The translations under genes were made by a program, and so were the position numbers. From assembly GCA_027491115.1 (NCBI GenBank), contig JAIXWV010000035.1, forward strand, positions 170-64,169: a stretch of 64,000 bases of DNA, in the 5' to 3' direction. This stretch comes from Pseudomonadota bacterium (lineage in GTDB: Bacteria; Bdellovibrionota; UBA1018; CAIMNF01). This document shows positions 5,753-51,154 of this stretch, one piece after another. The number at the start of each line of letters is the position of its first letter. Position 1 is the first letter of the stretch. The notes below the pieces were generated by a model. That model was not told the DNA's origin. It ran no database searches and saw only the letters and a program-made list of their open reading frames with translations.

Positions 5753-6199
5753 ATGAATAACAAGCAGATCAAGCCCGAAGCCTACCCGCTCATCATCCAG
5801 GTGGTCCACAACCACTTGATGATTTACTCTCCCGACTTCAATTACCGGGTCGTCGAAACTTGGCGACCCCATGACATCGGGCAAACAGAGATGATGGTGC
5901 TGAAGATCCGTAAGGAGCTTTCCTATCGCCTCCAACTTTCATCGGGTCGGAACACCTCCCCTCCCCTGCCCAGCTCCCCCTCTTCTCTTCACCTTGTCGA
6001 GGATCAGGATTGGATCTCAACCCGAGACACCGCTCGCCTTCTTCAAGTGTCCGAAGAAACTGTCCGTCGCCTTGCAGACCAAGGCGGTCTTGCGTGCAGA
6101 CTCACTCCGGGTGGACATCGTCGGTTCAATCGAAAGACGGTTTCTGACTACCTGAAGCGGTCGCATGACCACCTTCGGCCCCTGGAAGGCGAAGCCTGA
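5753..6199 (+). CDS. BldC/excisionase-type (HTH_17) DNA-binding protein with HicB-like N-terminal domain
   Basis: C-terminal STRDTARLLQVSEETVRRLADQGGL..LTPGGHRRF; N-terminal YPLII..IYSPDF..PPLPS pattern resembles HicB. Confidence 0.75.
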   Translation: MNNKQIKPEAYPLIIQVVHNHLMIYSPDFNYRVVETWRPHDIGQTEMMVLKIRKELSYRLQLSSGRNTSPPLPSSPSSLHLVEDQDWISTRDTARLLQVSEETVRRLADQGGLACRLTPGGHRRFNRKTVSDYLKRSHDHLRPLEGEA

Positions 6200-6204
6200 T
6201 ACAG

Positions 6205-6480
6205 CGCAAGTATCGGTTTTCATTTGCCTCATTCTGAGAATTCCGAGAAAAAAGAGAATCATTCTCCATTTTCTACTTCTCCGATTCGTACGAATCGTCC
6301 TTTTCGTAAGTATCGGGCGATTCCCACAATGATCCTTCATCCACCTCAACGGACGAGGCGTGCGAATCGCCTGAAGCTACTTATTCTGTCAAAAAAATAT
6401 CAGAGGAAGATTCGTCGGGTTCAATCTATTCTCACAGATAAGGAATGATTCGAAGTTTGAACGTTTCGTGAATTGCGAAC
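6205..6480. repeat. Repeat-rich intergenic region, candidate centromere/par operator
   Basis: GAGAA at 6236, 6245, 6254 (9-bp period), inverted TTCTC/TTCTA at 6262, 6271, 6277; perfect palindrome CGATTCGTACGAATCG 6282-6297; CGYAAGTATCGG at 6205 and 6305. Confidence 0.5.
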
Positions 6481-6499
6481 ACATCTCAAGGAGAGAGAA

Positions 6500-7267
6500 A
6501 TGAAAATCTTCACCGTTGCGAACTCGAAAGGGGGGTCGGGTAAAACGACCACCGCCTTCAATCTGGGCCATGAGTTGGCCCGCCTAGGTAAAAAAATCTT
6601 GATGGTGGATTTTGATCCCCAAGCGAGCCTCACCAATAGCTTCAAGGTGGAATTACCCCAAGATCAGATCTACATCGAGGATCTCGTATCGAAAGCAGGG
6701 CAGGGGAAGCTCTCCGTCGCGGACGCCATTGTCCAACCCAAACCAAACCTCTTTTTGATTCCGTCCACCGGCGCGCTCGGAAATCTCGAGAGCGAACTAA
6801 AGGGACCCTCCGGACTCGTGAGACTCCGAGAGTGCCTGAAAGGGATCATCCATCTGGGATTTGATGCGGTCATCATCGATCCTCCGGGCTCATCGGATGT
6901 TTTCATGTCGATGTCATTGCTTGCGGCAAACGAAGTCATCATCCCGACCAGGCCGACTGACACTGACATCACCACTTTGAAGGAATTTGTCCCGTTTGTA
7001 GAAGAACATCGGGCCCTGAACCCTACCCTCAACATCAGGGGAATCGTACTGAATCAGGTTCAAAGTTCTTCGAAAAATGCACAATTTTACCTGGACCGTC
7101 TCACCGAGATCGGTCTTGGAAGCTTGATCTTCAAGTCCAGCATTCGATCTGCAATCGACGCGGCAAACTCACTCGCCTACGGGCAGTGTTCATCTGAACA
7201 CAAACCCAAGGCACCCGTATCAAAAGACTATCAAGAACTCGCCCAGGAGGTGACACCATGGCTCTAG
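6500..7267 (+). CDS. parA: ParA-family partition ATPase (short form, no N-terminal HTH)
   Basis: Deviant Walker A KGGSGKTT, VDFDPQASLT, IIDPPG; RBS AGGAG upstream of ATG 6500. Confidence 0.95.
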   Translation: MKIFTVANSKGGSGKTTTAFNLGHELARLGKKILMVDFDPQASLTNSFKVELPQDQIYIEDLVSKAGQGKLSVADAIVQPKPNLFLIPSTGALGNLESELKGPSGLVRLRECLKGIIHLGFDAVIIDPPGSSDVFMSMSLLAANEVIIPTRPTDTDITTLKEFVPFVEEHRALNPTLNIRGIVLNQVQSSSKNAQFYLDRLTEIGLGSLIFKSSIRSAIDAANSLAYGQCSSEHKPKAPVSKDYQELAQEVTPWL

Positions 7268-7593
7268 ATCATAACGCAGGACAAAAAAGATCTGTCGGAT
7301 TGGCTCGCAACCTTTTCGCATCAACGGACATTGCCCAAACAGCCCCTAATGCGCCGGTTGCTGGATCATTACCAAAGAGTGAACCCGCTTCAACTTCCAA
7401 CCGTAAGGTCGACCTGACACAGGGCGGCCAGGCGCGAACCAAGAAGATATCTTTTCTTGCAGATCCCCGCCTGGAAGAGCGTTTCCGCAAGGCGAGACTC
7501 CGGGCTGGATTTGACAAGCTGGAAGATGCCTACAACGAGGCCATCAAGACCTTTTGTGATTTGGTCGATGCGGGGAAGATTGACCGTTTCTGA
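7258..7593 (+). CDS. Putative type Ib centromere-binding protein (ParG-like ribbon-helix-helix)
   Basis: Overlaps parA stop; low-complexity N-tail followed by a beta-alpha-alpha pattern KKISFLAD/PRLEERFRKARLRAG/LEDAYNEAIKTF. Confidence 0.7.
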   Translation: MALDHNAGQKRSVGLARNLFASTDIAQTAPNAPVAGSLPKSEPASTSNRKVDLTQGGQARTKKISFLADPRLEERFRKARLRAGFDKLEDAYNEAIKTFCDLVDAGKIDRF

Positions 7594-7652: not shown

Positions 7653-9302
7653 ATGGCAAAATCCCGTCCTGACCTTCTCAAGTACTACCGTCTTGGAGGC
7701 CAAGAAATCGCGATCATCTCCGTATACGGAGTATTGATCGGGTTTTTGTCCTTGTCTATTCCCATTGCGGTACAAAGTCTCGTAAACTCGGTTGCATTCG
7801 GTTCTGTTTTGCTTCCGGTTTTCATACTTTCTTTAATGGTGTTCCTTGGACTCGGGTTCAGTGGAGCATTGAAATTAGCCCAGAGAAAAGTCGTTGAATG
7901 GATCACGATCAAGGTATTCTTCAAGACGACGATCGCTCTGGGTCGACACCTTCCCAGTCTGAAGGAAGAAGCTCTCGACACCACATATGACAGGACGTAC
8001 TTCTCCAGGTACCTCGAGCTTTTTTCGGTCCAAAAAAACCTAAGTGGCCTGTTGGTCGATCTTCTCGATTTTGTGCTGATCGTAGGATCAGGGATGTTGA
8101 TTGTAGCCTTGTATCACCCAGCATTCTTGGTGTTCGACATCCTGCTCGTATTCTCGCTGTTTTTTGTAGTCCGTGTGGTGGGCAAAGACGGAATCGACAC
8201 CAAGCTGGACGAATCGGAGAGCAAATACGACCTAGCAACGTGGATGATGAGCCTTTCTAGGCCGGCCGTGGCACTCCGGGGATTAAACGGGATCGAATTG
8301 GCACAAGAAAGAACCCAATCTCTCGCGGACACTTTCATCGAGACACGCTCCAAGCACTTTAAGGTGCTGTTTCGACAACAAGCCGGCTTCCTGCTGATTT
8401 CAGTACTTTCCTCTACTGCTCTACTCGGAGCAGGCGGGATACTTGTTTTCAATAATCAACTCTCGCTCGGCCAATTGGTCGCCGCCGAAATCATTCTCGC
8501 AGGAGTGCTCGCATCCATTGGTAAATTGGATAAAATCATGGAGAACTATTTCGGGATCGTGGCATCCATTGGAAAACTGGAAAGCCTATTCGCCATTCCA
8601 GCTGAAGAGATCAATGAATCAGGCCATTTCCCTGCAAAGCTCTCCGGGAAGATCCATTTGGATGGAATCAATTACCGTTACCCTGGGGGTTCGGAACTTT
8701 GGATCCCCATTCACCAAACCATTGCACCCGGAGCTAAAGTTGCCATCAAGGGTCCTTCAGGTTCAGGGAAAAGTACCCTCTTGGAACTCATTTATGGATT
8801 GCGCAACCCTTCAGAAGGTCAGCTCCTTTTTGACGACTTAAACTCTAAGGATCTACACCTAAAACGTTTTCGCGATTACATCGGTTTCACTTCAATTTTT
8901 CAGGTAATCCCCGGAACCCTTCTGGCGAACATAGAGCTTGGCAGAAGGGTCGATTTCCCTCATCTGACATCCCTAGTGCGGGATCTCGCACTTGAGGAGT
9001 CAATATCCGCTCTACCGAACGGTTATCAAACAGAACTAGAACCTGTAGCCCTTCCGTTCTCAGTCGGACAGAAGGCTCGCTTTTCACTCCTCAGAGCGTT
9101 GGCGCACTCTCCCGAAATTCTGATCATCGATGAATCTCTCGATCAAATTGACCCCGATCTCCAGGATCGGGTTTGGGAAGTCATCCGGGCCAGGATGAAG
9201 GGCAAGACCGTTTTGATCGCCACACATGACGAAAGAATTGTGAAGAAATGTGATCAGATCATTGAACTTAGAAGATCCCGGAATGTGGGAGGTGACACAT
9301 GA
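7653..9302 (+). CDS. Type I secretion/export ABC transporter (TMD + ATPase)
   Basis: Multiple TM helices, LSLGQLVAAE, Walker A GPSGSGKST, signature FSVGQ, ILIIDE, H-loop ATH. Confidence 0.92.
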   Translation: MAKSRPDLLKYYRLGGQEIAIISVYGVLIGFLSLSIPIAVQSLVNSVAFGSVLLPVFILSLMVFLGLGFSGALKLAQRKVVEWITIKVFFKTTIALGRHLPSLKEEALDTTYDRTYFSRYLELFSVQKNLSGLLVDLLDFVLIVGSGMLIVALYHPAFLVFDILLVFSLFFVVRVVGKDGIDTKLDESESKYDLATWMMSLSRPAVALRGLNGIELAQERTQSLADTFIETRSKHFKVLFRQQAGFLLISVLSSTALLGAGGILVFNNQLSLGQLVAAEIILAGVLASIGKLDKIMENYFGIVASIGKLESLFAIPAEEINESGHFPAKLSGKIHLDGINYRYPGGSELWIPIHQTIAPGAKVAIKGPSGSGKSTLLELIYGLRNPSEGQLLFDDLNSKDLHLKRFRDYIGFTSIFQVIPGTLLANIELGRRVDFPHLTSLVRDLALEESISALPNGYQTELEPVALPFSVGQKARFSLLRALAHSPEILIIDESLDQIDPDLQDRVWEVIRARMKGKTVLIATHDERIVKKCDQIIELRRSRNVGGDT

Positions 9303-10300
9303 GCTTCTCCGAATCGGAAATCATGAAGCATGCAAGAACGGCAAAAATCCTCTCTTGGTCTTTTGTCGGGTTCCTGCTCTCTTTGGCACTTCTACCCTGG
9401 GCCCAAACCGTGATCGGAAAGGGAAGGGTGGTGGCGTTTTCTCCGACCGAAAGGGAGCAGAGAATCATTGCACCCATCGACGGCAGAGTGAAGAAATGGT
9501 TCATCGCTGAAGGTTCCATAGTTAAAAAAGGGGACCCGATTGTCGAATTGACTGATGTTGATCCAGACATTCTGAAGCGACTCGAGCAAGAGCAGATTGC
9601 CACTAAAAAGAAAATCTCTGCAGCCAAACTCGGGATTGAAACCTCGAGAAAGAACCTCCAGCGGCAGGAAAAACTTTTCGAAGAAGGCATTTCTTCTAGA
9701 AGAAGTTATGAATTGGCGAATCTTGAGCTGGTGAAGTATCTCACGGACGAAGCCAATGCCACCTCTGAATTAGCCAAGTTGGACGTCCGCATGGCAAGAC
9801 AGGCGGCTCAGTTGGTCTCTGCACCCGTTGACGGGGTCATCACCAAGCGTCTCACAGGCCAGGAGGGTGAGGTTGTCAAGATCGGAGCCGAACTCTCCGT
9901 GCTGATTCCCAGTACGGATTCACGTGCCGTAGAGCTATGGGTTCGGGGAAACGACATGCCCCTGATCCACAAAGATCAATCCGTCAGACTCCAGTTTGAG
10001 GGATGGCCGGCCATACAGTTTTCGGGCTGGCCCTCGGTGGCAGTGGGAACATTTCCCGGCAAAGTCCTTTGGGTGGATCCCACCAGTAATGAAACTGGAG
10101 AGTTTAGGATCATGATTCTACCGGAGGGCGGAGTAGGGAATTGGCCGGATCCAGGATTTCTCAGACAAGGCGTTAAAACGTTGGGTTGGGTCAATATCAA
10201 GTCTGTCTCCATCGGATACGAACTTTGGCGTCAGTTCAATGCTTTCCCCATTGTCCCCGAAATCAAGACCGGAAAAAAAACGAAGGACGGCAAGGAATGA
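9299..10300 (+). CDS. HlyD-family membrane fusion protein
   Basis: N-terminal TM, lipoyl-like APIDGRV..EGSIVKKGD, coiled coil, VRLQFEGWPAIQFSGWP. Confidence 0.92.
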   Translation: MSFSESEIMKHARTAKILSWSFVGFLLSLALLPWAQTVIGKGRVVAFSPTEREQRIIAPIDGRVKKWFIAEGSIVKKGDPIVELTDVDPDILKRLEQEQIATKKKISAAKLGIETSRKNLQRQEKLFEEGISSRRSYELANLELVKYLTDEANATSELAKLDVRMARQAAQLVSAPVDGVITKRLTGQEGEVVKIGAELSVLIPSTDSRAVELWVRGNDMPLIHKDQSVRLQFEGWPAIQFSGWPSVAVGTFPGKVLWVDPTSNETGEFRIMILPEGGVGNWPDPGFLRQGVKTLGWVNIKSVSIGYELWRQFNAFPIVPEIKTGKKTKDGKE

Positions 10301-11691
10301 TTCGCCACTTGGCAATGATCGGATTGACGCTCTGGACGGGTGAGGCCCAGGGAGCACTTCGTTTCTCCGAGTTGGCGGGGCGAATCTTAAGTGAGTCTGA
10401 TCTGAAATCCCAGATCGAGAGTGATCGCCTTCGAGTATTTCTCGAATATCAAGTCGCTGTCGGGAACCAGTTCGATCCCGTACTAAAGGCCAAATACTTC
10501 GATCAATTCCGGGGTGACTATATCCAGCGCCGCAAAGAACTCAGTGTGATGCAAAGACTCTCTGTTTGGGGTTCGGCAATCGAGTTCGGTTATAATAAGA
10601 GCCAGGGTGATTTCGCGGACTACGATGGAAAGTACATGACCCAGGACGGGGGCTCCCTCCGTGCGAAATTGGACATACCAATCTTGAGGAACGGGTTCAC
10701 AGACAGTCTCAGGGCCGCTCTCAGAAAAGGGATTATCTCCAAAGAAGTCTCAGAGCTCCAAGCGCGTTCTCAATCCTTGGACCTGCTCCGCCAAATCGGA
10801 TCGCGTTATTGGGATTGGTACCTCAGCGGTCAGCGCCTAAATGTCGCGGAAAAAATCCTTAAGCTCGCTGAGGACCGCCAAGAAAAAATCCGAATTCGTG
10901 TGGAAAGGGGAGATATCGCCAAGATTGAGGAGCTGGAAGGTGACCGAACGATCCTTCAGAGAAAGTCCTCTCTGGCACAGGGAAATCGTTTATTCACTCG
11001 TGCGAGGCTAGACCTTGAGGCCTTGTTAAGTACTCGTACGGAGAAAATTCCCGAGCTCTCCCTCACTGAAATTCCTGAAATTCCAATTCCAACCAATCTG
11101 ACCTCGTCCTCGAATGGCTGGAAGCAATCTGAGATGGAGGATGCAGAAACCCATCCAGAAGTTAGACGCCAGAGGCTTGTGCTCGAACAGACCGGCATTG
11201 ATCGAGAGCTTGCCGGTAACCAATTCCTTCCCAAATTGGACTTTTCTGTAGAGGCTGGCGAGAATCTCGGTACTGAGGTTTACGGTCTCAGCAAGTTCAG
11301 AATGAATGGAGGATTGTTTTTCGAATTCCCCATACCGTCCAGGGCTGCTTCCGCCCGGATTTCACAAGCGGAAGCACAATGGGTGCGGCAAGAAGCGACG
11401 GCATCCCTCACCTTGGTCAGGATTCGCAACCAGATCTCAGATTCTGGCGTGGCCCTTGGTTTGGCCATGGAACGCCTCCGTTTGGCCACCTCGGAGATGG
11501 AGCTTGCAAAAAAACTGGTGGACCTGGAGAGCAAGCGATTCCTCGAGGGTGATTCAAACCTTCTTCTTCTCAACATCAGAGAACAAAACCTTGCGGAAGC
11601 CGAGATTCGTAAATTCGAAGCATTCTCAGAAATGAAAAAATCTGAAATCGATCTCAATGCTGCACAAGGCCGGCTCAAACTTGTTGACTAA
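10297..11691 (+). CDS. TolC-family outer membrane efflux protein
   Basis: Third gene of the ABC-HlyD operon (ATGA overlap); signal peptide; LPKLDF; E..RF.EGDSNLL motif. Confidence 0.88.
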   Translation: MIRHLAMIGLTLWTGEAQGALRFSELAGRILSESDLKSQIESDRLRVFLEYQVAVGNQFDPVLKAKYFDQFRGDYIQRRKELSVMQRLSVWGSAIEFGYNKSQGDFADYDGKYMTQDGGSLRAKLDIPILRNGFTDSLRAALRKGIISKEVSELQARSQSLDLLRQIGSRYWDWYLSGQRLNVAEKILKLAEDRQEKIRIRVERGDIAKIEELEGDRTILQRKSSLAQGNRLFTRARLDLEALLSTRTEKIPELSLTEIPEIPIPTNLTSSSNGWKQSEMEDAETHPEVRRQRLVLEQTGIDRELAGNQFLPKLDFSVEAGENLGTEVYGLSKFRMNGGLFFEFPIPSRAASARISQAEAQWVRQEATASLTLVRIRNQISDSGVALGLAMERLRLATSEMELAKKLVDLESKRFLEGDSNLLLLNIREQNLAEAEIRKFEAFSEMKKSEIDLNAAQGRLKLVD

Positions 11692-11730
11692 CTGAGTCAT
11701 TTCCGACTGGTACGAATTCTTACCATAAAC

Positions 11731-11739
11731 TTTTCCACA
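11731..11739 (+). promoter_or_regulatory. Possible DnaA box
   Basis: TTTTCCACA fits TTWTNCACA but overlaps an inverted iteron, so it may be coincidental. Confidence 0.35.
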
Positions 11740-12040
11740 GAGTACGAATTCAGGCGTTCAGACAGGCGCGAATTCGAACTATTTAGAAATGAATTCGTAC
11801 TCTCTGGAAAAAATGCTTGAGTTCATCCCGTTGGGTCGGCAAAATTTTCTTAATGACAGGGTGTCCCTCCAAATCAATGACCGAGTTATGTCCCAATCCG
11901 GGTAAGGTTGCGGCCATAATTCGTACCGTCTGGAAATTTGAATCGTACCGGATGGAATTGTATTCGTACCCAACGGAAATAATCGCAACTTTAATTCGTA
12001 CTTGCTGGAAAAAGCTCTCGGCCCCAATCCCCGGAGTGAG

Positions 12041-12062
12041 CATGAAATTTCGTCATTTCATG
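12041..12062. promoter_or_regulatory. Inverted repeat between the two forward iteron clusters
   Basis: CATGAAAT-TTCGTC-ATTTCATG, perfect 8-bp arms. Confidence 0.45.
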
Positions 12063-12294
12063 GACTTAATCCAAATTTCCGATGAGCCGGCTTCGTTCAT
12101 CCAGGGACAGGCCGAATTTCGCACCTCGCGGAAAATCAATTCGTACCCCTTTGAATTTTTCATGAGCAGAATTCGTACCCAATGGAATTCTAATCGTACC
12201 GGATGGAAAGCGGCCTCTGAAATCATTGGGAAATTGCCCTATTTAGCGGGTCCTATAAATACGTTTTTATTCATTAATAAAGGAGAAGAGAACG

Positions 12295-13914
12295 ATGACT
12301 CACTTAAGCACTGAAATCGTACTCCAAGGAAACCTGGCTGTGGTGAAAGAGGAACAAAGAGAACTCTTCAATCCTGATTTCACTGTTGAAGCCAATTTGG
12401 TGAAATACTCTGCATTGTTCCCCCCTCATTCTCCAGAGACCCCCCTGTACAGCACCCGACATATTGATGCACTTAATTCCACAGGAGGCGGTGGGATCAT
12501 CGTGACCCAACTGACCACTTCGACATCACCCATTTCAAACAAAGGGAAGATCGAGCAGGACAGGGTGCCCGGTGATTTTGAGAAGAAGGTGTTTTACGCG
12601 ATTGTTTCAATCTGGGTAACCAACGGAAAGCCTGCAGACGGCATCGTCCATTTTTCGATCGGAAAGCTCATTGAACAACTTGGATTGAGCACCGGTGGGA
12701 AGAACTACAAGATGGTCAAGGAAGCCATTAGCAGAATCAGTCGGTCGACCATCAAGATCGAAGGATCTTATGTCTCTGCTCCGGATTTCAGAAAAGACAC
12801 AAGAGAATTTTCACTCTTTGCTGATTGTCAGGAGAGTCAATCACGAAGAGGTCGCAAAAGCCTCAATGGCAATATTGAGACCGATTTTTATAGGATCCGT
12901 CTCAATACAGCCATTGTCAGTAACATGATCCATGACTATTCCATTGTCATTCAGGTGAAGGATTATACTTCAGCATCAAGCAAGTATTACCGCAGACTAG
13001 TGGACATTATTGAGTTTGAGTTCCAAAAAGGTTCCGGTTTGGGGCAAGAAAAAATCGAGTTTCTGCTATCGCAATTGGCCAAAAACCTTCCTTTGGAAGG
13101 AGAAGCCTCTAATGTCAGTACCATATTGAAAAGACTTTCCGCATCACTCAGAGAATTGGTCGATCTAGGAGGATATCGCTATGATGTCACAAAAGTTGGG
13201 AATAATGCGCTCCTGACCATCTATTCCAAGACACATACCCGAAAAATCCTGACACAAAAAACGATTGAAGAGGAGATTGAAGAATATTTCAAAATTCACG
13301 AGCGGTTGTTCTCAATTCCGATTTGGGGCACGCTCAGTGAATCACAAAAGGCGGTTTCTGACTTTTTGTCGGCAGACCAAGCCAGGATTGATTTCGATGG
13401 AAAATCCTTCCTGAAGCCAGTGCACATACTTGATGTATTGATGTTCCAGTACCATGTTCGGAATGGGAAAAAACAACTTCGGAAGTGGTCTGCTGCCAAC
13501 GAGGAACGAGGCTCGATTCTCAGGATCGCGAGGAGCATCCTGAACGGATCGAACACTCTCAAATATCCGGACGGCTACAAGACGTATTTTGAACGGCTCC
13601 GTGACGCTGAAGCCTTGATTGCGAAGAACCAGCTCGAAGCCCGAGAGCAGGTGAGGACTCAAAGTGCTGCCCAGGAGGCCGAAAAGCAGGCGCGCAACCT
13701 TTATTTGGAGTTGAATGCATCAGGGCTCAATCACTATTTGAAAAGGCTCAGAGAAGAGTTTCCGAAGCTGCCTGAAGAAGCGATTCGCAGCGAGAAAATG
13801 ATCACCGATACCATCATGGAGGACATCCTAGACGGATCCTTGAGTCGGGTTCACTTCAAGAATCTGCAACCTCAGTTAGAGCGAGCACCCTTCAGTAAGG
13901 GTGAAATAAGTTAA
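12295..13914 (+). CDS. Putative plasmid/chromid replication initiator (winged-helix Rep; RepA/TrfA-like)
   Basis: Directly downstream of the iterons; PGDFEKKVFYAI..VHFSIGKLIEQLGLSTGGKNYKMVKEAISRI..STIKI resembles the first winged helix of iteron-binding Reps; strong RBS AGGAG. Confidence 0.78.
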   Translation: MTHLSTEIVLQGNLAVVKEEQRELFNPDFTVEANLVKYSALFPPHSPETPLYSTRHIDALNSTGGGGIIVTQLTTSTSPISNKGKIEQDRVPGDFEKKVFYAIVSIWVTNGKPADGIVHFSIGKLIEQLGLSTGGKNYKMVKEAISRISRSTIKIEGSYVSAPDFRKDTREFSLFADCQESQSRRGRKSLNGNIETDFYRIRLNTAIVSNMIHDYSIVIQVKDYTSASSKYYRRLVDIIEFEFQKGSGLGQEKIEFLLSQLAKNLPLEGEASNVSTILKRLSASLRELVDLGGYRYDVTKVGNNALLTIYSKTHTRKILTQKTIEEEIEEYFKIHERLFSIPIWGTLSESQKAVSDFLSADQARIDFDGKSFLKPVHILDVLMFQYHVRNGKKQLRKWSAANEERGSILRIARSILNGSNTLKYPDGYKTYFERLRDAEALIAKNQLEAREQVRTQSAAQEAEKQARNLYLELNASGLNHYLKRLREEFPKLPEEAIRSEKMITDTIMEDILDGSLSRVHFKNLQPQLERAPFSKGEIS

Positions 13915-41886: not shown

Positions 41887-42324
41887 CTGTTTTTAATTTA
41901 GAGACCGATAGTTTGGATCTGGAGCACCTCAATCAAACAAATAGAATCATTTAGGGCCATTAGGTAAACTGGAAAGAGTTTCATCAAGGAATTTAGAAGT
42001 GCTCCAAAATTAGTTTCAATTGCACAGGCCCCAATATTTTTTTTATTGCCAAAGAACGCACTGGATTGATTCGCATAGCTAAAGATGTAAGTCATGAATC
42101 TTGGGATTCTCTTGGCGATCAGCTTCCTTGATAGTCCGTCTGCTGTGGGCATTATTTTTTATCGCAGATAATGAATTCATTGATCGTTAAATTCCTGTGA
42201 GTAGATTACATCCCACCTCTTAATAATGGTGCCTTTGAAATCATGGACGAGAATGGCCCAGTGAGATAGATTCAAGCAGTGGCACCAGTCAAGTGTCTGT
42301 TAAGAATTGAGGGTTTTTATTGGT

Positions 42325-43248: not shown

Positions 43249-43355
43249 ATTATGCTAGTTTAGTTCGAATCCTTTTTGGGTAGGGGTTACTATGCTCAGA
43301 TTGTTATTGTTCCTCGGTTTGTTGGAGATGAAGTAAAAAAGACTCAGGATTAAAC

Positions 43356-44045
43356 ATGAGAATAGTCGTACTAACGGGAGCCGGAATGAGCGCCGAGAGC
43401 GGAGTGATGACTTTTCGCGGAAACGGTGGTCTTTGGGAGAACCACCGAATCGAGGAGGTTGCCACGCCTGAGGCGTTTGCCCGGAACCCGGAGCTGGTCC
43501 TCACGTTTTTCAACCAACGGCGGGCGCAGCTCAATCAGGTAGCGCCGAATGCCGGCCACCTGGCTCTCGCAAAACTCGAAAAAGAACACGAGTTGAGGAT
43601 CATCACTCAGAATGTGGACGATCTCCATGAAAGAGCGGGGAGTACGCAGGTCTTGCATCTTCACGGAAAGCTGAGAGAGGTGCGCTCAGTGCGTAACCCT
43701 GAAATGGTGCTCCCGTGGACAGGGGATCTGAACTTGGGGGATACCGGACCGGACGGGGTCCAACTCAGACCCAACATCGTCTGGTTCGGCGAGGCCGTTC
43801 CCGCAATGGATGAAGCAGTGGAGATCGCGCGCACTGCGGATCACTTCCTGATCATCGGCACTTCGCTTCAGGTGTACCCTGCGGCCTCGCTGTATCGCTA
43901 CATCGCACCTGGAATTCCGTGCACCTACATCGATCCGTCACCCAATCGTGACGGACTCGACGCAAGAGTTCGGGTCATCCCAAAGGGAGCAGGAGAAGGA
44001 GTGCCCGAGTGGATTCAGTTTTTGCGCGGAGACGCCAGAAATTAA
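43356..44045 (+). CDS. cobB: NAD-dependent protein deacylase (sirtuin)
   Basis: GAGMSAESG..TFR, TQNVDDLHERAG, HG, RPNIVWFGE, GTSLQVYPAA. Confidence 0.96.
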   Translation: MRIVVLTGAGMSAESGVMTFRGNGGLWENHRIEEVATPEAFARNPELVLTFFNQRRAQLNQVAPNAGHLALAKLEKEHELRIITQNVDDLHERAGSTQVLHLHGKLREVRSVRNPEMVLPWTGDLNLGDTGPDGVQLRPNIVWFGEAVPAMDEAVEIARTADHFLIIGTSLQVYPAASLYRYIAPGIPCTYIDPSPNRDGLDARVRVIPKGAGEGVPEWIQFLRGDARN

Positions 44046-44256
44046 TCCAATAATTGACAGTCTTGAGTGATCGAGTCTTCTGGGGCAGCTTCAACCGCGC
44101 ATTGTTCCGACTGGTCTTCCCACTCATCAGGGCAGAGTGGATCAAGGGGGGATGCGGACGACAACCTGAACGACGGTACTTGGTTAGAAAAATTTAGCGA
44201 TACTTGCGACAATACCCGTGCCTTGTATTGTATTTCGATTTGAAACACTTGCCCGG

Positions 44257-44937
44257 CTATTGCTTCAATAAAACAGCGCCCAAATCCAAAGGTCTTTTTT
44301 CAGCACTGCTAGCATCAAACAAGGATTCATCCACGTTTGGAGTGGAGGGATTATCTGCGTCTGCTACTTGCCCGAGCTGGAGACGCTGAGGCACCGAGGT
44401 AGCATCGACTTTTGCAATACTGAATTCCGTCGTTCCCGGAAGGGCAGAGCAACCTGAATTCGTTACGTCGTAATCGGTTTCGTCAACAGAAGAACCCACT
44501 CCTGCGCACTCTTGGACGAAACCAGCGCCAAGTGCGCTCGAGTTGAATTTGCGAATCTTCGCGGTACGGGTAGCGATGTCCAAGGCAAAAGCCCCGCTTA
44601 CCGCCACTGACCCAGCTCCCTTTACTAGCACCCCTGTGGCAGTGAGCTCCGCCTGTTTGGATCCACTGCATGATCCATCCCGTGATGTCCATATTGAAAA
44701 TGTGCTGTTGAATTGATCTCCACTGATGGTGAGCAATTGCATCATGTCAAAATCGTCACTGGAATCCGAAGGTGTGTTGTTATCGTTAGTCGTACATTCC
44801 TGTCGCCAGGTACCAGCCATAGAGCCGATATCAGCATCAGTACTGGTTGATGGTTTTGTGCATGAGGTCAGAACCAAGACCATCAGAGCTGAAGTAAGCC
44901 TTCTTTGATTCCACGGGGTAATTTCGAACATACCCAC
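44257..44937 (-). CDS. Hypothetical lipoprotein
   Basis: Lipobox LTSC; GTW..C motif. Confidence 0.7.
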   Translation of the reverse strand: MGMFEITPWNQRRLTSALMVLVLTSCTKPSTSTDADIGSMAGTWRQECTTNDNNTPSDSSDDFDMMQLLTISGDQFNSTFSIWTSRDGSCSGSKQAELTATGVLVKGAGSVAVSGAFALDIATRTAKIRKFNSSALGAGFVQECAGVGSSVDETDYDVTNSGCSALPGTTEFSIAKVDATSVPQRLQLGQVADADNPSTPNVDESLFDASSAEKRPLDLGAVLLKQ

Positions 44938-45045
44938 TCATCGAATGAATCTGACACAAACTTAACGGGAGTGAAGGAGTCCTTTCCGTCGCACACAAGC
45001 CTTTGGTTTTCAGCCTGAGTCAGGCGTATGGCCTCGCTACGTAGT

Positions 45046-45132
45046 TTCATCGACACTTCCTCGAACCGGAATAGTCTCGGTACAAGAGTACGGGTCATCG
45101 CCAAGAGCGCAGGAGAAGGGGTGTCCGAGTGG
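45046..45132 (+). pseudogene. Degenerate copy of the cobB 3' end
   Basis: Ungapped 64/87 nt match (hand count) to 43926-44012; FIDTSSNRNSLGTRVRVIAKSAGEGVSEW vs YIDPSPNRDGLDARVRVIPKGAGEGVPEW. Confidence 0.85.
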
Positions 45133-45133
45133 G

Positions 45134-47665
45134 TCACTTCGCTTTCGGTTCAATCCCGTTGATTTCGCCTTCTTTCATGAGCTTCTTGAACGTGCCCTCG
45201 CCGAACTCGGAATCGACCTCACTCCGGATGAGTTTTTTCTCATCGCGGCAGCCTTTCTTCAATCGACGGAGAATCCCTGGCTTCTGGAGAGTCAGGTTGT
45301 AGACGGGGATATCGGTGTACTTGGTTTCCTTGGTGGGCGAGACCCGACCCCGACAGGTCACATCAATTTTTGGCTGATCCACGCTCTCAGACTTCTTACC
45401 CGGAGCTTCGATCGAGGCCGCCACATCGAACAACTTGAGCGCGTTGAAGTCTTCGATCACTTTCGGATCTACTTTTGCGCGGCCATCTTCATGAAACCCA
45501 CCCTTCACAGCATTCAGGTACATCTTCTTACGTATTTCTGCGTTCGAACAAACGCGGCCATGAAGTTCTGGGTTAGATGAAGCCAGGCTCGGGCACTCTT
45601 CGTCGAAGAACTGATTGACCGAGCACTCGTAAAGGGCGCTGCTTTGAAAAGGGTTCATGTGTTTCCTGCAGCAATCTTTCAGGAGTGGATCTCCTTCCTC
45701 ACACACCTCTCCATAAGAGCCAGAATAGGGGTACTCCGGACTCAGTGGGCCGACCGCTTTCGAGACCCCTTTCCTGACAAAAGATGATTCGGGAATCTGA
45801 TACGTACCCGCACCATCTCCTAAATACGATCCGAACTGGGCCCGGATCTCTTCCATCATCAGGCGCTCCGCCTCGGATTTACGCATCTGAGCGAGCTCGT
45901 CTAGGGTCTTGGCGGTGTTGTTGTTGTTCCGGTTCGCCGTGCCCATCACATTGAGGTTGATTTTGGCATTTTTCAACGCCTCGTCCAATTGCTCGCGGGT
46001 TACCGGCTTGGCGAGCTTCAATTGGCTCATGTACCGATCCACCATGTCCTTGGCCTGGTCCTTGAGCGCCTGATTTCCCTGTTTGATGTTTTCGTAGTTG
46101 TTGTCGTTCACATCAGAGCAGGTGAGGATATCCTGGGATTTTTGACCATCATGGATCCGGTATGCGCCCAAGGTAGCGTCATTCAAAGTGTAACCCTTCT
46201 GACAGTCACCCGAGAACTTATTCAGATCAAAGGTCGGGACGTTGTCAGGGAAGTACTCGCCCACTTCTGATTTGCTACCGACGGTCAGGCTACTAGTAGA
46301 GCAAATGATGCCAGATGGGTGAACATACTGTGTGGTGTGTACCTTGTCGAATGCCGTTGTCACCTGGTCAGCATCGAGTTTTGCGACTTCAGCTTTCACC
46401 TCGTTCTTACAGTGCTCAATGGCTTGATCCTTCAGATTTTGCAGAAGTTTATCGTTATCATAAGGTTGATCGCAAACCTTTCCGGAAACCTCCCCCAACC
46501 AATTTCCATCAACTGTGAGAACATTGATGTCGCAAGTTTCTCTCTTTTTGTCTTCTTTCGGGGTGTAGGTGTAGCAGGGGTCGGTACAAGTACAGTCGGC
46601 CCCGTTCCAGGCGGTAGGGTCGCCGTATTTGTTTACACATTTGGCTTTGAGTTCATCTTTGTGACCGGGATGTTTGAGTTTGATTTTACCGCAAAATTCG
46701 GGTTTTTCCTTGATTCGGGGAACCGGCGGGCAGTCACAAGAGGATTCTCGCCAGCTTCGGCGAGGGTCGATCTTGATCAACAACTCGCAATATTGCTTCT
46801 TGCGGTTGTACTCTCCGAGACCGATTTGCCCGAAATTTGGTCCACAGTCATGGAGCTTCTTTGTGTCATGACATTCGCAGGTGGTCAGATTGTACTCGTA
46901 GTACTTTCTCGAGTTAGGATCTGAATTCGGCTTCTCGCACTTGTCTTTTTCGGCGAGCCTTTCGTCGTTCGTCATCATTTTACCGTTCGCGCATGGTGTG
47001 ACTTTTTTATCGTCAGTTTTACATTCGCAAACTTCTTCGTTCCAAGTATGAGTTTTGAATTTGTCGTCACACTTCTTCTTTTCTTTTTCAAACTTATCCA
47101 AGGTCCAGTTCTTCTCGCCACAGAAGCGGGCGGTGTGGATTTCAAACTTCTTTTTCCCTGCCCCGAGTGATTCGAGCTCTTTGCCTTTGAGTTTAAATTT
47201 TTTATCGAACAGGCCTTTTTTTAAGACAGTGAAATCGCCATTGGGGTCGCCTTTAACCTTCATTTCGATGGCGACCATTTGCCCGTTGTTGTAATTAATC
47301 AGCTTGTACAATTTTGTTTTTTTGCCTTTGTCCTCTTGAATCGAGCCCGTAATGTATTTTCCAGAAGATCCTTCAATCCGTCCTTTCTTGAGAAGTTCCT
47401 TCAAGCATCGTTCAGCAGCTTCTGTGCTTGAAAACAGTGCGGTTTGTTTGGTGTCCTGTTTCTCTTCTGCGTCCGTCAGGTTTTCTGCTGCGCCCGAATT
47501 GTTGAGGAGTGGGTCGGCGACATCGTGAGCATGGAGCAACGAAGCCATACCTTGATAATCACAAAGATCAACAGGCCGGGGGTTTTGTGCTTGGGCCGGT
47601 GCGATCCCTTGGAGCGACAAAGCGATCAACCAAGCGAATGTGACGATTGAATGAGAAACTTTCAT
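45134..47665 (-). CDS. Large secreted Cys/Lys-rich protein
   Basis: Signal peptide; four about 45-aa repeats CG..K..C..W/Y...C.C. Confidence 0.75.
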   Translation of the reverse strand: MKVSHSIVTFAWLIALSLQGIAPAQAQNPRPVDLCDYQGMASLLHAHDVADPLLNNSGAAENLTDAEEKQDTKQTALFSSTEAAERCLKELLKKGRIEGSSGKYITGSIQEDKGKKTKLYKLINYNNGQMVAIEMKVKGDPNGDFTVLKKGLFDKKFKLKGKELESLGAGKKKFEIHTARFCGEKNWTLDKFEKEKKKCDDKFKTHTWNEEVCECKTDDKKVTPCANGKMMTNDERLAEKDKCEKPNSDPNSRKYYEYNLTTCECHDTKKLHDCGPNFGQIGLGEYNRKKQYCELLIKIDPRRSWRESSCDCPPVPRIKEKPEFCGKIKLKHPGHKDELKAKCVNKYGDPTAWNGADCTCTDPCYTYTPKEDKKRETCDINVLTVDGNWLGEVSGKVCDQPYDNDKLLQNLKDQAIEHCKNEVKAEVAKLDADQVTTAFDKVHTTQYVHPSGIICSTSSLTVGSKSEVGEYFPDNVPTFDLNKFSGDCQKGYTLNDATLGAYRIHDGQKSQDILTCSDVNDNNYENIKQGNQALKDQAKDMVDRYMSQLKLAKPVTREQLDEALKNAKINLNVMGTANRNNNNTAKTLDELAQMRKSEAERLMMEEIRAQFGSYLGDGAGTYQIPESSFVRKGVSKAVGPLSPEYPYSGSYGEVCEEGDPLLKDCCRKHMNPFQSSALYECSVNQFFDEECPSLASSNPELHGRVCSNAEIRKKMYLNAVKGGFHEDGRAKVDPKVIEDFNALKLFDVAASIEAPGKKSESVDQPKIDVTCRGRVSPTKETKYTDIPVYNLTLQKPGILRRLKKGCRDEKKLIRSEVDSEFGEGTFKKLMKEGEINGIEPKAK

Positions 47666-47817
47666 GGATTTACCCCTTGAGTCGACAGGCTACAATTAAA
47701 CCCGCCCCTGAATACTTAAAGTTTATCGGATACCACCATGATGTCATTTAGTTTTTTGCTTTATGGCAAAAACACCGTCAGAAGGTAAACGGATTCAGTT
47801 GTGTAGGAGCCCTGTCT

Positions 47818-50013
47818 CTATCCTGCACGTTCCAGAAGGGATGGCAGAAGGCTTTTGGGCAGAACCCGCACCCCCGCCCTGAGGGCCATCTCCATCAGCT
47901 CTGGCTCATCAAACCGACCCGTGACCAGGCAGGCTTGCCGTTCGAGCCCGAGCTCAGACAAGACCGATAACCCTTTGTTTTCAGGCTCATGGATGAAGTC
48001 TTGGTCCATGAGTACGAAGGTGCGCTCGAAGCCATCGAAATTCTTCGAGAAGTACTGTTTGAATGCGCGGAGGCTCTGGAACGACTGGATCGGGAATTTT
48101 GATGAGAGTTGGATGTTCCATGCCTCGTGAATGAGTGGATCGTCATCGACAATGATGACTTGCTCCCATCCTGAAGTGAGGAAATCCCCTTGTATCGGGA
48201 GACCTGCATCTGCGCGGGGTAGGGTGATGCTCACCTCGGTTCCTGATCCAGGTGAGCTCTCCACCGAAATGGAACCTCCGGAAGCATCCGCCAATTGTTT
48301 GGCATGGTGAAATCCGATTCCTGACCCACCAGTCTTTCCGTGACTGAACCCTGCTTCACCTAGACGGAGAACGGTCTCCGGAGCCATTCCGACTCCGTGG
48401 TCCTTTATTTTCAATATGAACTCATCATCGGTGAGCGAATCCAGGCTGACCGAGATCTTCCCTGTGGAATCGATACCATGGGCTTCTTGAGCATTGTTGA
48501 GAAGATTGGACACCATCCGGGTGAATCCGGCTTTTGACCCAAAAAGCAACGTCAGTCGACCGGAAGGTGTTGATTTGAATTCGATCGAACAGGGTTGGTT
48601 CAATCCAGAGTATTCGACCCGCTTTTCGGCGATGACAGCTTCAATGACCGAGTGAGGATGAAACAGAGATGTGTGTCGATCAGTGGATTCTCGTGCATCC
48701 GGAAGGTCAGCGTTCATCGGGCTACGATGGTGAAGGAGCGCATCCGCCACATCGCGGATACGACGAAGGGCTTGTTGGACGAGTTGGGGATCACTGCGAG
48801 TAACCCGTTCTTCCGATCCGACCAGGACTTCGAGAGTGGTCAGTGGAGACCTCAGATCGTGCGCCACCTGACGGGCCACCTCGAGCTCGATCTTGGCCCG
48901 TGCCACGAGCATGGCCTGTTGCTGATGGACATCAATCCGTTCCAGGAGGGCTTGGAACTGCTTGGCCAACTCGGTGACTTCGTCCGCACCTTCGATTTCA
49001 ATGCGGTTCAGAAGCGGAGAATCACGGTGACTTTGCTCGATAAGACTATTGAGAAGGCGGATCCGCAGTGTGAATCTTTTGGCCAATCCGAACGCCACGC
49101 AAAGGGCGAGAAGCCCCCAGACCATTGCATACCCAAGCCCTTTCAATAGCTCTTTCCGGATCCATTGATGGTGAGATTCATTCTTGATCATCAAAGAGAA
49201 GAGGTACTGGTGTCTCCCGGACCGTAGATCACCGGATTTTCTGCACTGACCACAGTCGGGGTGTGAAGAGTCCACCCAATTGAGGAGCCGGGTTCCTTCT
49301 TTAGAATGAATCACCGTCCGGGTGCTCTGGATCAGTTCAGGCAGTTTCACCCGTTCTGTTTCATAGCGGAACACCCCGCGCTCGAAACGGCCGAGGCTGG
49401 TTCCGTTCGGAGAGAGAATGTGGACTTCCAGGATTTCTGGATCGGAAGCCACCAGTTTCGAGAGGGCGGTTTCCATGAAGTCCGCTCTGAGTCCCGCATG
49501 CAAGAATCTACCCGTCGCCCGATGGAAGACGCTCAAGAATTTATAGGGTCTGATTTCAGGGTCCGGGGGAATCAACGGTGTGGAGAGGGGCATCTCTGGT
49601 CCTGACAAGAGCAAGCGGTACTCGTCTGAGAAGGAGTACAGATTCGGAATGAGTTCTGGGGCCTCGTTGGTGGAGCGGATGAACCGTCCAGAACGGTCGA
49701 TGATGAAGAAGTGCGACATTCCGAGCTGCTTTGCTTTTTGAACCAGAAGATCTCTCGAAGGAAGACCTCGAAGATCGTCGTGCTTCAGGTGCTGCAGCGC
49801 AAGCCACATCTTCGCCTCTGCATCCCGCTCAAACTGAAGGATACTCGCTGACAGCAGGGACAGGGTGTGTTCGTACTTCTCGATCCGGGCGCTTCCACGA
49901 GCCTCGATTCTGCGGTCCGAGTGGATGCCGATCGCAAGAAAGCCGATTCCACTCAAAACAGCCCCCAAAAGCAGGAACAGCTTGCCTTCGACACTTCTGA
50001 AGTAGCGCTTCAT
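47818..50013 (-). CDS. Sensor histidine kinase with C-terminal receiver-like domain
   Basis: Two TMs, HAMP, QVAHDLRSPL, NLLNNA, DHGVG, GSGIG, IIVDDD. Confidence 0.92.
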   Translation of the reverse strand: MKRYFRSVEGKLFLLLGAVLSGIGFLAIGIHSDRRIEARGSARIEKYEHTLSLLSASILQFERDAEAKMWLALQHLKHDDLRGLPSRDLLVQKAKQLGMSHFFIIDRSGRFIRSTNEAPELIPNLYSFSDEYRLLLSGPEMPLSTPLIPPDPEIRPYKFLSVFHRATGRFLHAGLRADFMETALSKLVASDPEILEVHILSPNGTSLGRFERGVFRYETERVKLPELIQSTRTVIHSKEGTRLLNWVDSSHPDCGQCRKSGDLRSGRHQYLFSLMIKNESHHQWIRKELLKGLGYAMVWGLLALCVAFGLAKRFTLRIRLLNSLIEQSHRDSPLLNRIEIEGADEVTELAKQFQALLERIDVHQQQAMLVARAKIELEVARQVAHDLRSPLTTLEVLVGSEERVTRSDPQLVQQALRRIRDVADALLHHRSPMNADLPDARESTDRHTSLFHPHSVIEAVIAEKRVEYSGLNQPCSIEFKSTPSGRLTLLFGSKAGFTRMVSNLLNNAQEAHGIDSTGKISVSLDSLTDDEFILKIKDHGVGMAPETVLRLGEAGFSHGKTGGSGIGFHHAKQLADASGGSISVESSPGSGTEVSITLPRADAGLPIQGDFLTSGWEQVIIVDDDPLIHEAWNIQLSSKFPIQSFQSLRAFKQYFSKNFDGFERTFVLMDQDFIHEPENKGLSVLSELGLERQACLVTGRFDEPELMEMALRAGVRVLPKSLLPSLLERAG

Positions 50014-50543
50014 TTGACGAACTCCTGCAGGTGTTGCTTCAAGTCCTCGGGCCAACGGGAGAACTCCGAGCGGGTCAGCATTTCGAAATCCCTGAAATCA
50101 AATCCAGGTGCGACAGTGGTTCCGACCAGTGAATAGCCGAAGGATCCTTCGACCCGTCGGGATGCCTGCCAAGACCCCGCAGGAATCACCGCTTGGGGCC
50201 GCTGTCCCTCCATGAGGTTGGAGCCAAGGTGGATCTTTTTGTGCGAGCCTGAAGAACCGATTTCATGGAGCTCGAGCGGATCGCCGAGGTAGAAGTGATA
50301 GATCTCATCCGACTGCAAACGGTGCAGCATGGAGTAGGAATCAGGTGTGACCAGGTAGTAAATTGAGCTGACCGTGGATCGCCGGCCCATCCAGAATTCG
50401 AGTTCTTGGCTTGAGAGAAACGTCCTGGCAAAGTAGCCACCCTCGGGCTCCAAGGGACGCAGGTCCAAGAGTCGAATGATGGTTGCAAGATCAATCGGAG
50501 GTGTCACGGGCTTGGCGATGGGATGCATGGTCTGATTCCTCAC
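50010..50543 (-). CDS. Cupin_5 (DUF985) family protein
   Basis: PEGGYF, SIYYL, HRL.SDEIYHFYLG, VAPGFDF.DFE. Confidence 0.9.
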   Translation of the reverse strand: MRNQTMHPIAKPVTPPIDLATIIRLLDLRPLEPEGGYFARTFLSSQELEFWMGRRSTVSSIYYLVTPDSYSMLHRLQSDEIYHFYLGDPLELHEIGSSGSHKKIHLGSNLMEGQRPQAVIPAGSWQASRRVEGSFGYSLVGTTVAPGFDFRDFEMLTRSEFSRWPEDLKQHLQEFVK

Positions 50544-50651
50544 TCAGGGAGATGCAAACTTCGAGCCCCCTCAGGTCTGTTCCAGAGGACTTAAGACCCA
50601 GGATTTGTGGCCCCTACACGACAATTCCGAGGATTGTGGTAGGCTGAAGAC

Positions 50652-51128
50652 ATGTCCATTCAGACCTGCCTGCGATGCAAAGGGCCTTGTGTTCAACACA
50701 ATCACGAAGGGGTAGCCATCGACCGGTGTTCGAGTTGCGGCGGGGCTTGGCTCGATCAGGGTGAGCTCGAGGCGATTGTCGAGTCTCGTGAGAATTCTCA
50801 TCCGGCCTCTTTTGTACAGGAAACGTTGAAGCAAGGTCAGGCTGGTCTTCCGGAAGGATCGCAAAAGGACCTGGTGGCGTGCCCGAAATGCGCGATGAAC
50901 ATGAAGGTCGTCAATTACGCCTATGATTCTGGAGTGATCATCAACGTTTGCCAGAGCCATGGAATTTGGCTCGACCCCAAGGAACTCGAGCGGATCGAGG
51001 CTTACCGCGATCATTGGAAATCCGAAGCCAACAAGCGTCGGGCAGAATGGTCCGAGCACATTCGCCCCGGGTCTACCGATGGCGCAACCGGAAGCGGACT
51101 CCTTCACTTTTTGAGAAGCCTCTTCTAA
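50652..51128 (+). CDS. Tandem zf-TFIIB-like zinc ribbon protein
   Basis: Two CxxC..IDxCxxCxGxWLDxxELE-type repeats. Confidence 0.85.
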   Translation: MSIQTCLRCKGPCVQHNHEGVAIDRCSSCGGAWLDQGELEAIVESRENSHPASFVQETLKQGQAGLPEGSQKDLVACPKCAMNMKVVNYAYDSGVIINVCQSHGIWLDPKELERIEAYRDHWKSEANKRRAEWSEHIRPGSTDGATGSGLLHFLRSLF

Positions 51129-51154
51129 GTCCGATAATAAAGATTATGTAAACT
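51127..51154 (+). other. dif-like XerC/XerD recombination site
   Basis: AAGTCCGATAA-TAAAGA-TTATGTAAACT: 11-6-11 structure with ATAA-N6-TTATGT core as in E. coli dif; intergenic apart from 2 nt of the upstream stop codon. Confidence 0.82.

Follow-up and report, generated by a model that had tools for sequence, protein, structure and literature searches.

Secondary replicons which combine plasmid-type Rep and Par proteins with chromosome-type dimer resolution are well known, mostly from Proteobacteria and mostly at sizes of hundreds of kb. The stretch analyzed here (64,000 nt, positions 170 to 64,169 of contig JAIXWV010000035.1, assembly GCA_027491115.1; "the window") comes from an uncultivated freshwater Bdellovibrio-like bacterium and carries a partition module, iterons with a Rep gene and a dif-like site, which raises the question whether these belong to one separate circle with an origin and a terminus of its own. 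A preliminary description, made from the letters of the window only, had proposed such a circle, of about 78 kb and with balanced replichores, and had termed it a candidate mini-chromid. In the following, the source genome is denoted G000, the contig carrying the window C8 (window = G000:C8:170-64169) and the compared genomes by other G numbers; positions without a contig name refer to the window. The G000 draft comprises 2.55 Mb in 45 contigs (98.7% complete, 0.7% contaminated); C8 has 77,199 bp and 51.9% G+C, the remaining genome 55.1%. According to the analysis below, C8 probably represents a separate circular, plasmid-derived replicon which is replicated bidirectionally from a Rep/iteron origin to a dif site of its own, is inherited vertically and has been domesticated to a chromid-like state.

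Circularity, proposed origin and terminus of the replicon

C8 has no terminal overlap of its own (overlaps of 11-200 nt were looked for) and its circularity was therefore drawn from relatives and from a gene split over the contig ends. In the 10-contig assembly of G016, contig C2 (78,196 bp) carries a 69-bp terminal direct overlap and corresponds to C8 in circularly permuted order: positions 1-19,985 match C8 57,241-77,199, and position 20,169 onward matches C8 from position 1 onward. The end of C8 is joined to its start by alignment with three contigs, namely G016:C2, G001:C18 and G007:C25. The intact START-domain open reading frame (ORF) of G016:C2 (329 codons) has residues 1-31 at C8 77107-77199 and residues 93-329 at C8 1-711, in frame, and the gap of 183 nt (61 codons) in C8 lies inside this gene. 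Since three contigs cross the junction and a gene is split over both ends, the replicon of G000 is therefore a separate circle of ~77.4 kb, roughly 3% of the genome.

The par module, the iterons with Rep and the dif-like site were all recovered where the preliminary description had placed them (Table 1). Thirteen iterons (~22 bp, GAATTCGTACYnnnYGGAAA) were found, ten of them direct at 11769-12212, two inverted at ~11695-11752 and one inside the 5' end of rep, with a spacing of 21-22 or 32 bp; iteron clusters adjoin rep also in G016, G001 and G007. By its tandem iterons beside rep, C8 would be an iteron-controlled replicon. The DnaA box in this region agrees with the consensus at 8 of 9 positions. 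For the small ORF which overlaps the end of parA, no Pfam or NCBIfam family and no second copy in G000 were found.

Judged from its predicted fold, Rep is a divergent winged-helix initiator of the RPA/Rep3/TrfA kind. Its Pfam scores are borderline (Rep3_N 22.6 bits, cut-off 22.4; RPA 21.1 bits, cut-off 27) and no NCBIfam match was obtained. PLSDB returned three weak matches only (24-28% identity, 28-41% coverage), which are annotated as TrfA or replication initiator protein A on Rubrobacter and Deinococcus plasmids. An exhaustive search of 1.84 billion representatives gave 96 proteins at E ≤ 1e-3 and 3 at E ≤ 1e-30, and a word-indexed search gave 9 clusters. In a scan of 51 family members (the query plus 50 matches), RPA was detected in 46, Rep3_N in 14 and TrfA in 6. 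The AlphaFold2 model, which was built from a 9-sequence alignment and has a pLDDT (predicted local distance difference test) of 65.6, contains two winged-helix units; its best PDB match in Foldseek was RctB domains 2-3 (E 2.7e-12, template modeling score 0.59 on the target), followed by RepE54 (6.6e-4 to 6.4e-5). No sequence-level similarity of Rep to any solved structure, RctB included, was found.

Cumulative G-C over C8 reaches its minimum at 9162 and its maximum at 52134 and falls again to the contig end. After removal of the mean, the curve spans 980, compared to at most 687 in shuffled 1-kb bins, and none of 10,000 shuffles reached 980. The sign of the skew is set by the arm rather than by the strand of the genes (genes on the + and - strand: +0.076 and +0.047 on the right arm, -0.026 and -0.062 on the left arm), the fitted effects on C8 are 0.053 for the arm vs 0.016 for the gene strand, and the per-base magnitude is about that of chromosomal contigs. 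The two inversions predicted in the preliminary description, near 12 and 51 kb, thus exist, and all eight of its quoted 60-nt G/C counts are exact, the two disagreeing lines being as described. The maximum lies ~1 kb right of the dif-like site (dif2), within a 4.6-kb insert specific to G000, and is displaced by this block, which abuts dif2. An independent replicate is given by G016:C2, where the minimum is at 30,146 (iterons 32,453-32,909) and the maximum at 76,933, ~130 bp from dif (76,786-76,811). In G000 and G016 alike, the minimum falls inside the block of type I secretion-like genes; the strand switch may be displaced relative to the iterons, or the curve may be shifted by local gene composition.

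From the centre of the iterons, dif2 is 39,187 and 38,195 bp away round the two sides and lies at 50.6% of the circle. With 77,199 bp plus ~183 bp missing and arcs of 39.2 and 38.2 kb, both the proposed size and the proposed balance of the replichores are borne out. The chromosome has poles of its own: its skew is monotonic in all large contigs except two, the minimum being located on C1 (136,726) next to dnaA (134,410-134,889) and the maximum on C42 (78,380) next to a dif site at 79,817. A Mb-scale chromosome with dif2 as its main terminus, which the preliminary description had set against its own proposal, is excluded because the chromosome has its own origin (C1) and its own terminus (C42).

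The chromosomal dif at C42:79817 reads ATGTCCGATAA-TGATTA-TTATGTAAACT. Its arms are identical to those of dif2 at 21 of 22 positions and the centres differ (TAAAGA in dif2 vs TGATTA); no further site exists in the 2.55 Mb of G000 at ≤ 5 arm mismatches. When 17 genomes of the genus were searched with the arms pattern (≤ 2 mismatches), two sites each were obtained in G000, G016, G001 and G004, which have this Rep, and in G003, which has a distant Rep, and one site each in G011, G013, G009, G008 and G002, none of which has a Rep match. In the remaining 7 of the 17 genomes, including the Rep-bearing G007 (91% complete), no site was detected. The chromosomal centre TGATTA is common to 7 genomes, the replicon centre TAAAGA to G000, G016 and G001. 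G000 encodes two tyrosine recombinases only, best matched by XerD (on C42) and XerC (on C1), and none on C8; the XerC/XerD equivalog scores fall short of the NCBIfam cut-offs, and with the tyrosine-recombinase subfamily model one of the pair passes the cut-off. C45 encodes an FtsK that has a gamma domain. Thus, dif2 matches the chromosomal dif of its host and sits at the skew switch opposite the origin, and the host encodes XerC, XerD and FtsK. The site lies in a 65-bp intergenic gap, which would therefore leave no room for non-coding accessory sequences of the cer type. Kept arms with divergent centres were described between non-homologous chromosomes of one cell in multi-chromosome Proteobacteria and explained as a way of avoiding Xer-mediated fusion (Val et al. 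2008, PMC2533119).

The circle, its architecture and skew, the two dif sites per genome, the conservation and the gene content are shown by the sequences; origin firing, Xer/FtsK action, copy number and indispensability are inferred. Rep, as an initiator of the RPA/Rep3/TrfA kind, would bind the 13 iterons (11.7-12.3 kb) and open the adjacent A+T-rich DNA, and two forks would run in opposite directions and meet ~39 kb away at the 28-bp dif2. Dimers would be resolved there by the chromosomally encoded XerC and XerD of the host, probably activated by FtsK, and the copies would be partitioned by the ParA ATPase and a small partner protein. The centre of dif2, unlike the chromosomal centre, should prevent Xer-mediated fusion of the replicons. 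Without transfer machinery, the replicon would be passed on vertically and would have diverged together with its hosts in a clade of at least four species; it carries single-copy genes that are chromosomal in congeners lacking it.

Inheritance and gene cargo

With a 20-kb chromosomal probe, identities of 89% (G016), 82% (G001) and 80% (G007) were obtained, and other congeners matched at ≤ ~73% and only in parts. The replicon is present and syntenic in all three of these closest species; its DNA identity to G016, G001 and G007 is 84-96%, 65-76% and 68-79%, respectively, with gene order conserved. Four further genomes of the genus, each at species level, have Rep homologues of 96, 94, 90 and 79% identity, and these values rank as the chromosomal identity does. 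The replicon appears to diverge in the order of the chromosome, somewhat faster, which fits vertical descent in the few taxa compared. The search of relatives for further Rep/iteron/dif sets, which the preliminary description had suggested, thus yielded the replicon in G016, G001, G007 and G004, and a distant Rep together with a second dif-like site in G003.

Other genomes of the genus and order also have distant Rep homologues (23-25% identity), on contigs of low GC content (43-45%), and the group may hold further Rep/dif replicons. The contigs concerned in these distant Rep and second-dif observations are G003:C82, G003:C286, G006:C48, G006:C376 and G022:C256. The second dif-like site of G003 has the centre TGTTTG and is on a contig separate from its Rep.

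For the cargo, 75 ORFs of C8 were scanned with Pfam. No relaxase, type IV secretion, transposase or insertion sequence (IS), or integrase was found among them, which agrees with the absence of transfer and IS genes noted earlier for the window; phage genes were likewise not found. The cargo is of accessory or stress type. Envelope, transport and signaling functions are represented by the type I secretion set and, on the right replichore, by a TonB-dependent receptor, LemA, an AmiA-like amidase, LpoB/CsgG-like and LPP20 lipoproteins, a 1357-aa Ig-repeat protein and a histidine kinase; DNA damage and oxidative stress by SRAP (right replichore), AhpC and DinB (left replichore, beyond the window); metabolism and protein modification by a desaturase and Sir2 (right replichore), arginase, an M14 peptidase and ADH (left replichore) and a GATase (left, beyond the window). 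The arginase matches the rocF equivalog (303.6 bits, cut-off 227.6), and the match to LpoB is below the family cut-off. The only detectable DinB, SRAP and Sir2 genes of G000 are all on the replicon, which lends it a DNA-damage/oxidative-stress flavor, and the other AhpC copies of G000 are only 43% and 36% identical to that of the replicon.

Of the 75 ORFs, 55 have no tblastn match (E ≤ 1e-5) elsewhere in G000. The cyclophilin has a paralogue on C42 (65% identical), the closest of any C8 ORF. In five congeners without Rep, nucleotide searches, from which alone orthology was judged, detected chromosomal homologues of the LpoB-like/LPP20 cluster (5 of 5), arginase (4 of 5), AhpC (4 of 5, 74-78%) and DinB (3 of 5). 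HlyD, LemA, ADH and an M10 peptidase cluster were also found chromosomally in such congeners, the homologues being spread over several contigs; most other cargo gave no nucleotide match in the five genomes. The housekeeping character which the preliminary description had ascribed to the cargo is only partly supported: several genes are chromosomal in congeners without the replicon, and no tRNA, rRNA or classically essential genes were found.

Table 1. Features of the replicon in window coordinates (a dot marks features without strand)
Feature	Position	Strand	Evidence and remarks
START-domain gene, 3' part	3..545	+	Pfam START 1.1e-11; split over both C8 ends, marker of the circular junction
HTH_17/excisionase-family DNA-binding protein	5660..6199	+	Pfam HTH_17 3.2e-11; NCBIfam 'excise' domain 36.2 bits (cut-off 28.8); upstream of par
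16-bp perfect palindrome CGATTCGTACGAATCG with iteron core	6282..6297	.	~200 bp upstream of parA; candidate operator or centromere
ParA-type Walker partition ATPase	6500..7267	+	Pfam AAA_31 1.9e-32, CbiA 6.4e-20; NCBIfam ParA_partition 2.6e-29, below cut-off
111-aa ORF overlapping parA end	7258..7593	+	candidate centromere-binding partner by position only
ABC exporter, HlyD-type adaptor and outer-membrane factor (type I secretion-like)	7653..11691	+	Pfam ABC_tran, HlyD_3, OEP; between par and origin; holds skew minimum
Origin region	11695..12333	+	13 iterons, one 8-of-9 DnaA box at 11731, 70% A+T stretch 12221-12310
Rep initiator, 539 aa	12295..13914	+	predicted two-winged-helix core with N- and C-terminal extensions
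Right replichore	13911..51107	.	G>C on + strand
dif2, 28-bp XerC/D-type site AAGTCCGATAA-TAAAGA-TTATGTAAACT	51127..51154	+	intergenic, at replicon terminus
4.6-kb block abutting dif2	51158..55784	+	ABC ATPase, two ABC-2 permeases, opine-dehydrogenase-like gene (Pfam); G000 only
Left replichore, start	55784..64000	.	C>G on + strand; runs on to C8 77199 and into window 1-11690
SRAP, Sir2, DinB and AhpC loci	24738-25664, 43356-44045 (window); 11326-11892, 13700-14797 (L001)		L001 and the window together cover C8

A polar word and the alternative readings

To describe strand-biased words, 2.27 Mb of the chromosome were oriented by skew and words were ranked by their strand bias. The three most biased chromosomal 8-mers all contain GGTGGGG, which occurs 358:25 (leading:lagging) whatever the flanking bases; words one base off show a bias of 55-76% only. 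The polarity flips around dif in G011:C7, and chromosomal samples gave 19:2 (G016), 9:0 (G001) and 4:1 (G007). In this it resembles signals of the type of FtsK-orienting polar sequences (KOPS) and, less well, of the Chi type. The density of the word on the chromosomes of the same species is 0.13-0.21 per kb. On C8 it is found 0 times, with 5.6-11.9 occurrences expected under Markov models and 6.6-18.9 per 77 kb on chromosomal contigs. It is likewise missing from G016:C2, G001:C18, G007:C25 and G001:C32 plus G007:C47 (33 kb), which makes it absent on both strands from ~271 kb of the replicon family in four species, and from two contigs (64 kb) with distant Rep homologues. In the pooled 237 kb of four diverged copies, GGTGGGG is the most depleted of 7,477 testable 7-mers (0 vs 21.1 expected, Poisson P 6.7e-10; next word 3e-4). 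Selection on the replicon family to carry no GGTGGGG in either orientation, the word pointing from oriC to dif on both chromosomal arms like a KOPS-type or Chi-type signal, is a tentative explanation to which we give somewhat less than even credence. If true, a small replicon would keep a chromosome-type dif and yet stay invisible to the reader of chromosome polarity, a coexistence not found described in the literature searched. The purge raises the question how small replicons avoid or use polarity readers of the FtsK or RecBCD type.

Several observations weigh against a domesticated, chromid-like replicon, and some of them would suit an ordinary low-copy accessory plasmid, dispensable, exchanged among related hosts and merely using a Xer site. 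The definition of a chromid includes a composition closely resembling the chromosome's, for which a survey used a GC content within ±1% (PMC12456017). The GC content of C8 is 3.2 points below that of the remaining genome (2.3-3.8 points in G016, G001 and G007), its tetranucleotide (TETRA) correlation is 0.857 vs 0.890-0.944 for 17 chromosomal 77-kb windows, and the mean difference in relative synonymous codon usage (RSCU) is 0.143 vs ≤ 0.110 for 33 chromosomal gene sets (r 0.94); both profiles come close to the chromosomal range without falling into it. Rfam and tRNA scans of C8 gave no tRNA, rRNA or Rfam genes, and Pfam no classically essential genes. Rep was found in 6 of 16 congeners (four close and two distant homologues); the 10 without it include near-complete assemblies of 8-10 contigs. 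Of the 75 C8 genes, only 24 (30% of coding bases) run in the same direction as the inferred forks, compared to 55-56% on the chromosome, and most C8 genes would be transcribed head-on to replication. GGTGGGG is wholly absent from C8, so there is no KOPS-type convergence on dif2. The skew minimum lies ~2.5 kb left of the iterons in G000 (~2.3 kb before them in G016) and not at ~12 kb, where the preliminary description had expected it. The rank agreement between replicon and chromosome rests on 3-4 relatives, and because all genomes are metagenome-assembled genomes (MAGs), the linkage of the replicon to its host rests on binning, on the dif arms they share, on similar codon usage (RSCU r 0.94) and on a divergence that matches. 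Set against an exchanged accessory plasmid are the lack of any detected relaxase, type IV secretion system, IS or integrase, a gene order kept over 14-30% DNA divergence which ranks with, and slightly exceeds, that of the chromosome, and single-copy genes which are chromosomal in congeners. We consider such a plasmid unlikely and, since plasmids and chromids form a continuum, different from a domesticated chromid-like replicon mainly in degree. Of the chromid label, the plasmid-type Rep, iterons and ParA and the replicon's own terminus were upheld, and chromosome-like composition was not. Core genes located on the chromosome in other species also belong to the definition (PMC12456017); single-copy arginase, AhpC, DinB and the LpoB-like/LPP20 cluster may be of this kind, with chromosomal homologues in 3-5 of 5 Rep-less congeners. 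C8 is read here as a domesticated, chromid-like plasmid, strict chromid status not being shown.

Two further readings concern the contig itself. An integrated plasmid remnant or an inversion beside the main chromosomal terminus would be compatible with a draft assembly, which by itself leaves linkage possible, and with the missing terminal overlap of C8. However, the main terminus with its dif is on C42 and oriC with dnaA on C1, three relatives bridge the C8 ends, over which one gene is split, and G016:C2 closes with a 69-bp overlap in an assembly of 10 contigs, which renders this reading scarcely credible. A mis-binned contig of another organism could be suspected because all genomes are MAGs and the composition of C8 is slightly off the chromosomal range; but the replicon was binned with MAGs of the same genus in G016, G001, G007 and G004, the arms of dif2 match the host dif (21/22) and the RSCU correlation is 0.94. 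For a phage-plasmid, PHROGs searches of the ten largest unassigned ORFs gave two weak matches only (7e-5 and 2.3e-5) and no convincing phage structural match. We regard mis-binning or a phage-plasmid as very improbable. The structural interpretation of C8 as a separate circle with its own origin and terminus was thus confirmed and the chromid label partly supported; it is a known kind of system with one unexplained feature, the absence of GGTGGGG.

Comparison with known replicons and neighboring features

The arrangement resembles chromosome 2 of Vibrio cholerae, which is replicated in both directions towards a dif of its own under a plasmid-derived initiator acting on repeated sites, as would be the case for C8. 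The Rep model, which is of moderate confidence and has no sequence-level counterpart, finds its best structural match in RctB domains 2-3, and in V. cholerae, too, the two replicons have dif sites with conserved arms and different centres (PMC2533119). Unlike V. cholerae chromosome 2 (~1 Mb), the C8 replicon has only ~77 kb, with no essential genes seen. Chromosome 2 shares the polar GGGNAGGG word with chromosome 1 (PMC2533119), whereas the C8 replicon has none of the polar word of its chromosome.

In size, plasmid-type replication module and stress-type cargo (here AhpC, DinB, SRAP and Sir2), C8 is similar to the 72-kb pDSHI05 of Dinoroseobacter shibae, which carries stress-response genes and was classed as a chromid because of its codon usage (PMC4373377). 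The two differ in phylum and Rep type (pDSHI05 is RepB-I), and the codon usage of C8 lies outside the chromosomal range. The preliminary description's view that the replicon is unusually small is only partly supported, small size alone not being new after the description of this 72-kb chromid (PMC4373377).

For Enterobacteriaceae, Fournes et al. 2025 (PMC11724359) reported that plasmids of 30-100 kb are mostly without a Xer site and use recombinases of their own, that naked 28-bp sites dependent on FtsK occur almost exclusively in large replicons, being the rule above ~250 kb, and that KOPS convergence tends to be acquired by large replicons; in P1, which shows skew, loxP is located opposite the origin. 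Like large enterobacterial plasmids with FtsK-dependent 28-bp Xer sites, such as R27 (180 kb), and the plasmid prophage P1 (PMC11724359), C8 shows a GC skew from the origin to an opposite dimer-resolution site, in C8 apparently without accessory sequences. Unlike the surveyed enterobacterial plasmids of 30-100 kb, the 77-kb C8 replicon has an apparently naked site and encodes no recombinase; unlike the large replicons there, it has no polar word. Replication direction was surveyed by Xie et al. 2021 for replicons > 200 kb only (PMC7858055). Eight phyla with chromids are listed in a 2025 survey that covered 36,322 complete genomes, Bdellovibrionota not being among them, and its main text never uses the word 'Bdellovibrio' (PMC12456017). 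Literature searches on chromids, multipartite genomes or secondary replicons in Bdellovibrio or Bdellovibrionota gave no relevant paper among the results listed, which is not proof of absence.

Seen against this background, a full replichore layout, with an origin, two equal arms, skew of chromosomal strength and an own dif with divergent centre, is found on a 77-kb circle, which is smaller than expected, and Bdellovibrionota would be a new phylum for this genome layout. The replicon would represent an intermediate stage: apparently vertical, without transfer genes and with genes that are chromosomal in relatives, yet lower in GC, without essential genes and without the polar word.

The 4.6-kb block next to dif2 is missing from G016:C2 and G001:C32, where the alignments end at dif and restart at C8 55953; a cluster weakly similar to it is present on G013:C33. 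An origin of the block by Xer-mediated integration, as in integrative mobile elements exploiting Xer (IMEX), was not supported, no second dif-like site being found at its far end (best 9 of 22 mismatches, chance level). The ABC ATPase gene contains, 640 bp from dif2, a weak dif-like 28-mer (51766-51793) that deviates at 5 of 22 arm positions; 1 of 200 shuffles equals it.

C2 of G000 (24.9 kb, 47% GC) was considered as a second extrachromosomal element and rejected; its genes suggest a surface-polysaccharide island of low GC content rather than a replicon. Pfam matches were obtained in 8 of 10 scanned ORFs (sugar-nucleotide epimerases/dehydratases, a glycosyltransferase, a DegT-family aminotransferase, DUF2079 membrane proteins and a transketolase-type subunit). 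Codon usage of C2 is unrelated to that of the chromosome (RSCU r 0.10).

The chromosomal cyclophilin paralogue (C42:82562-83056) lies 2.7 kb from the chromosomal dif, and in G002 a cyclophilin match is ~16 kb from its dif (C1:421988 vs 438318). The two TTCGTAC copies of the palindrome upstream of parA are at C8 6454(+)/6463(-), and the same pair occurs in G016:C2 at 27022/27031. Possibly Rep has a second site of action at the par promoter; alternatively, the palindrome may be the centromere.

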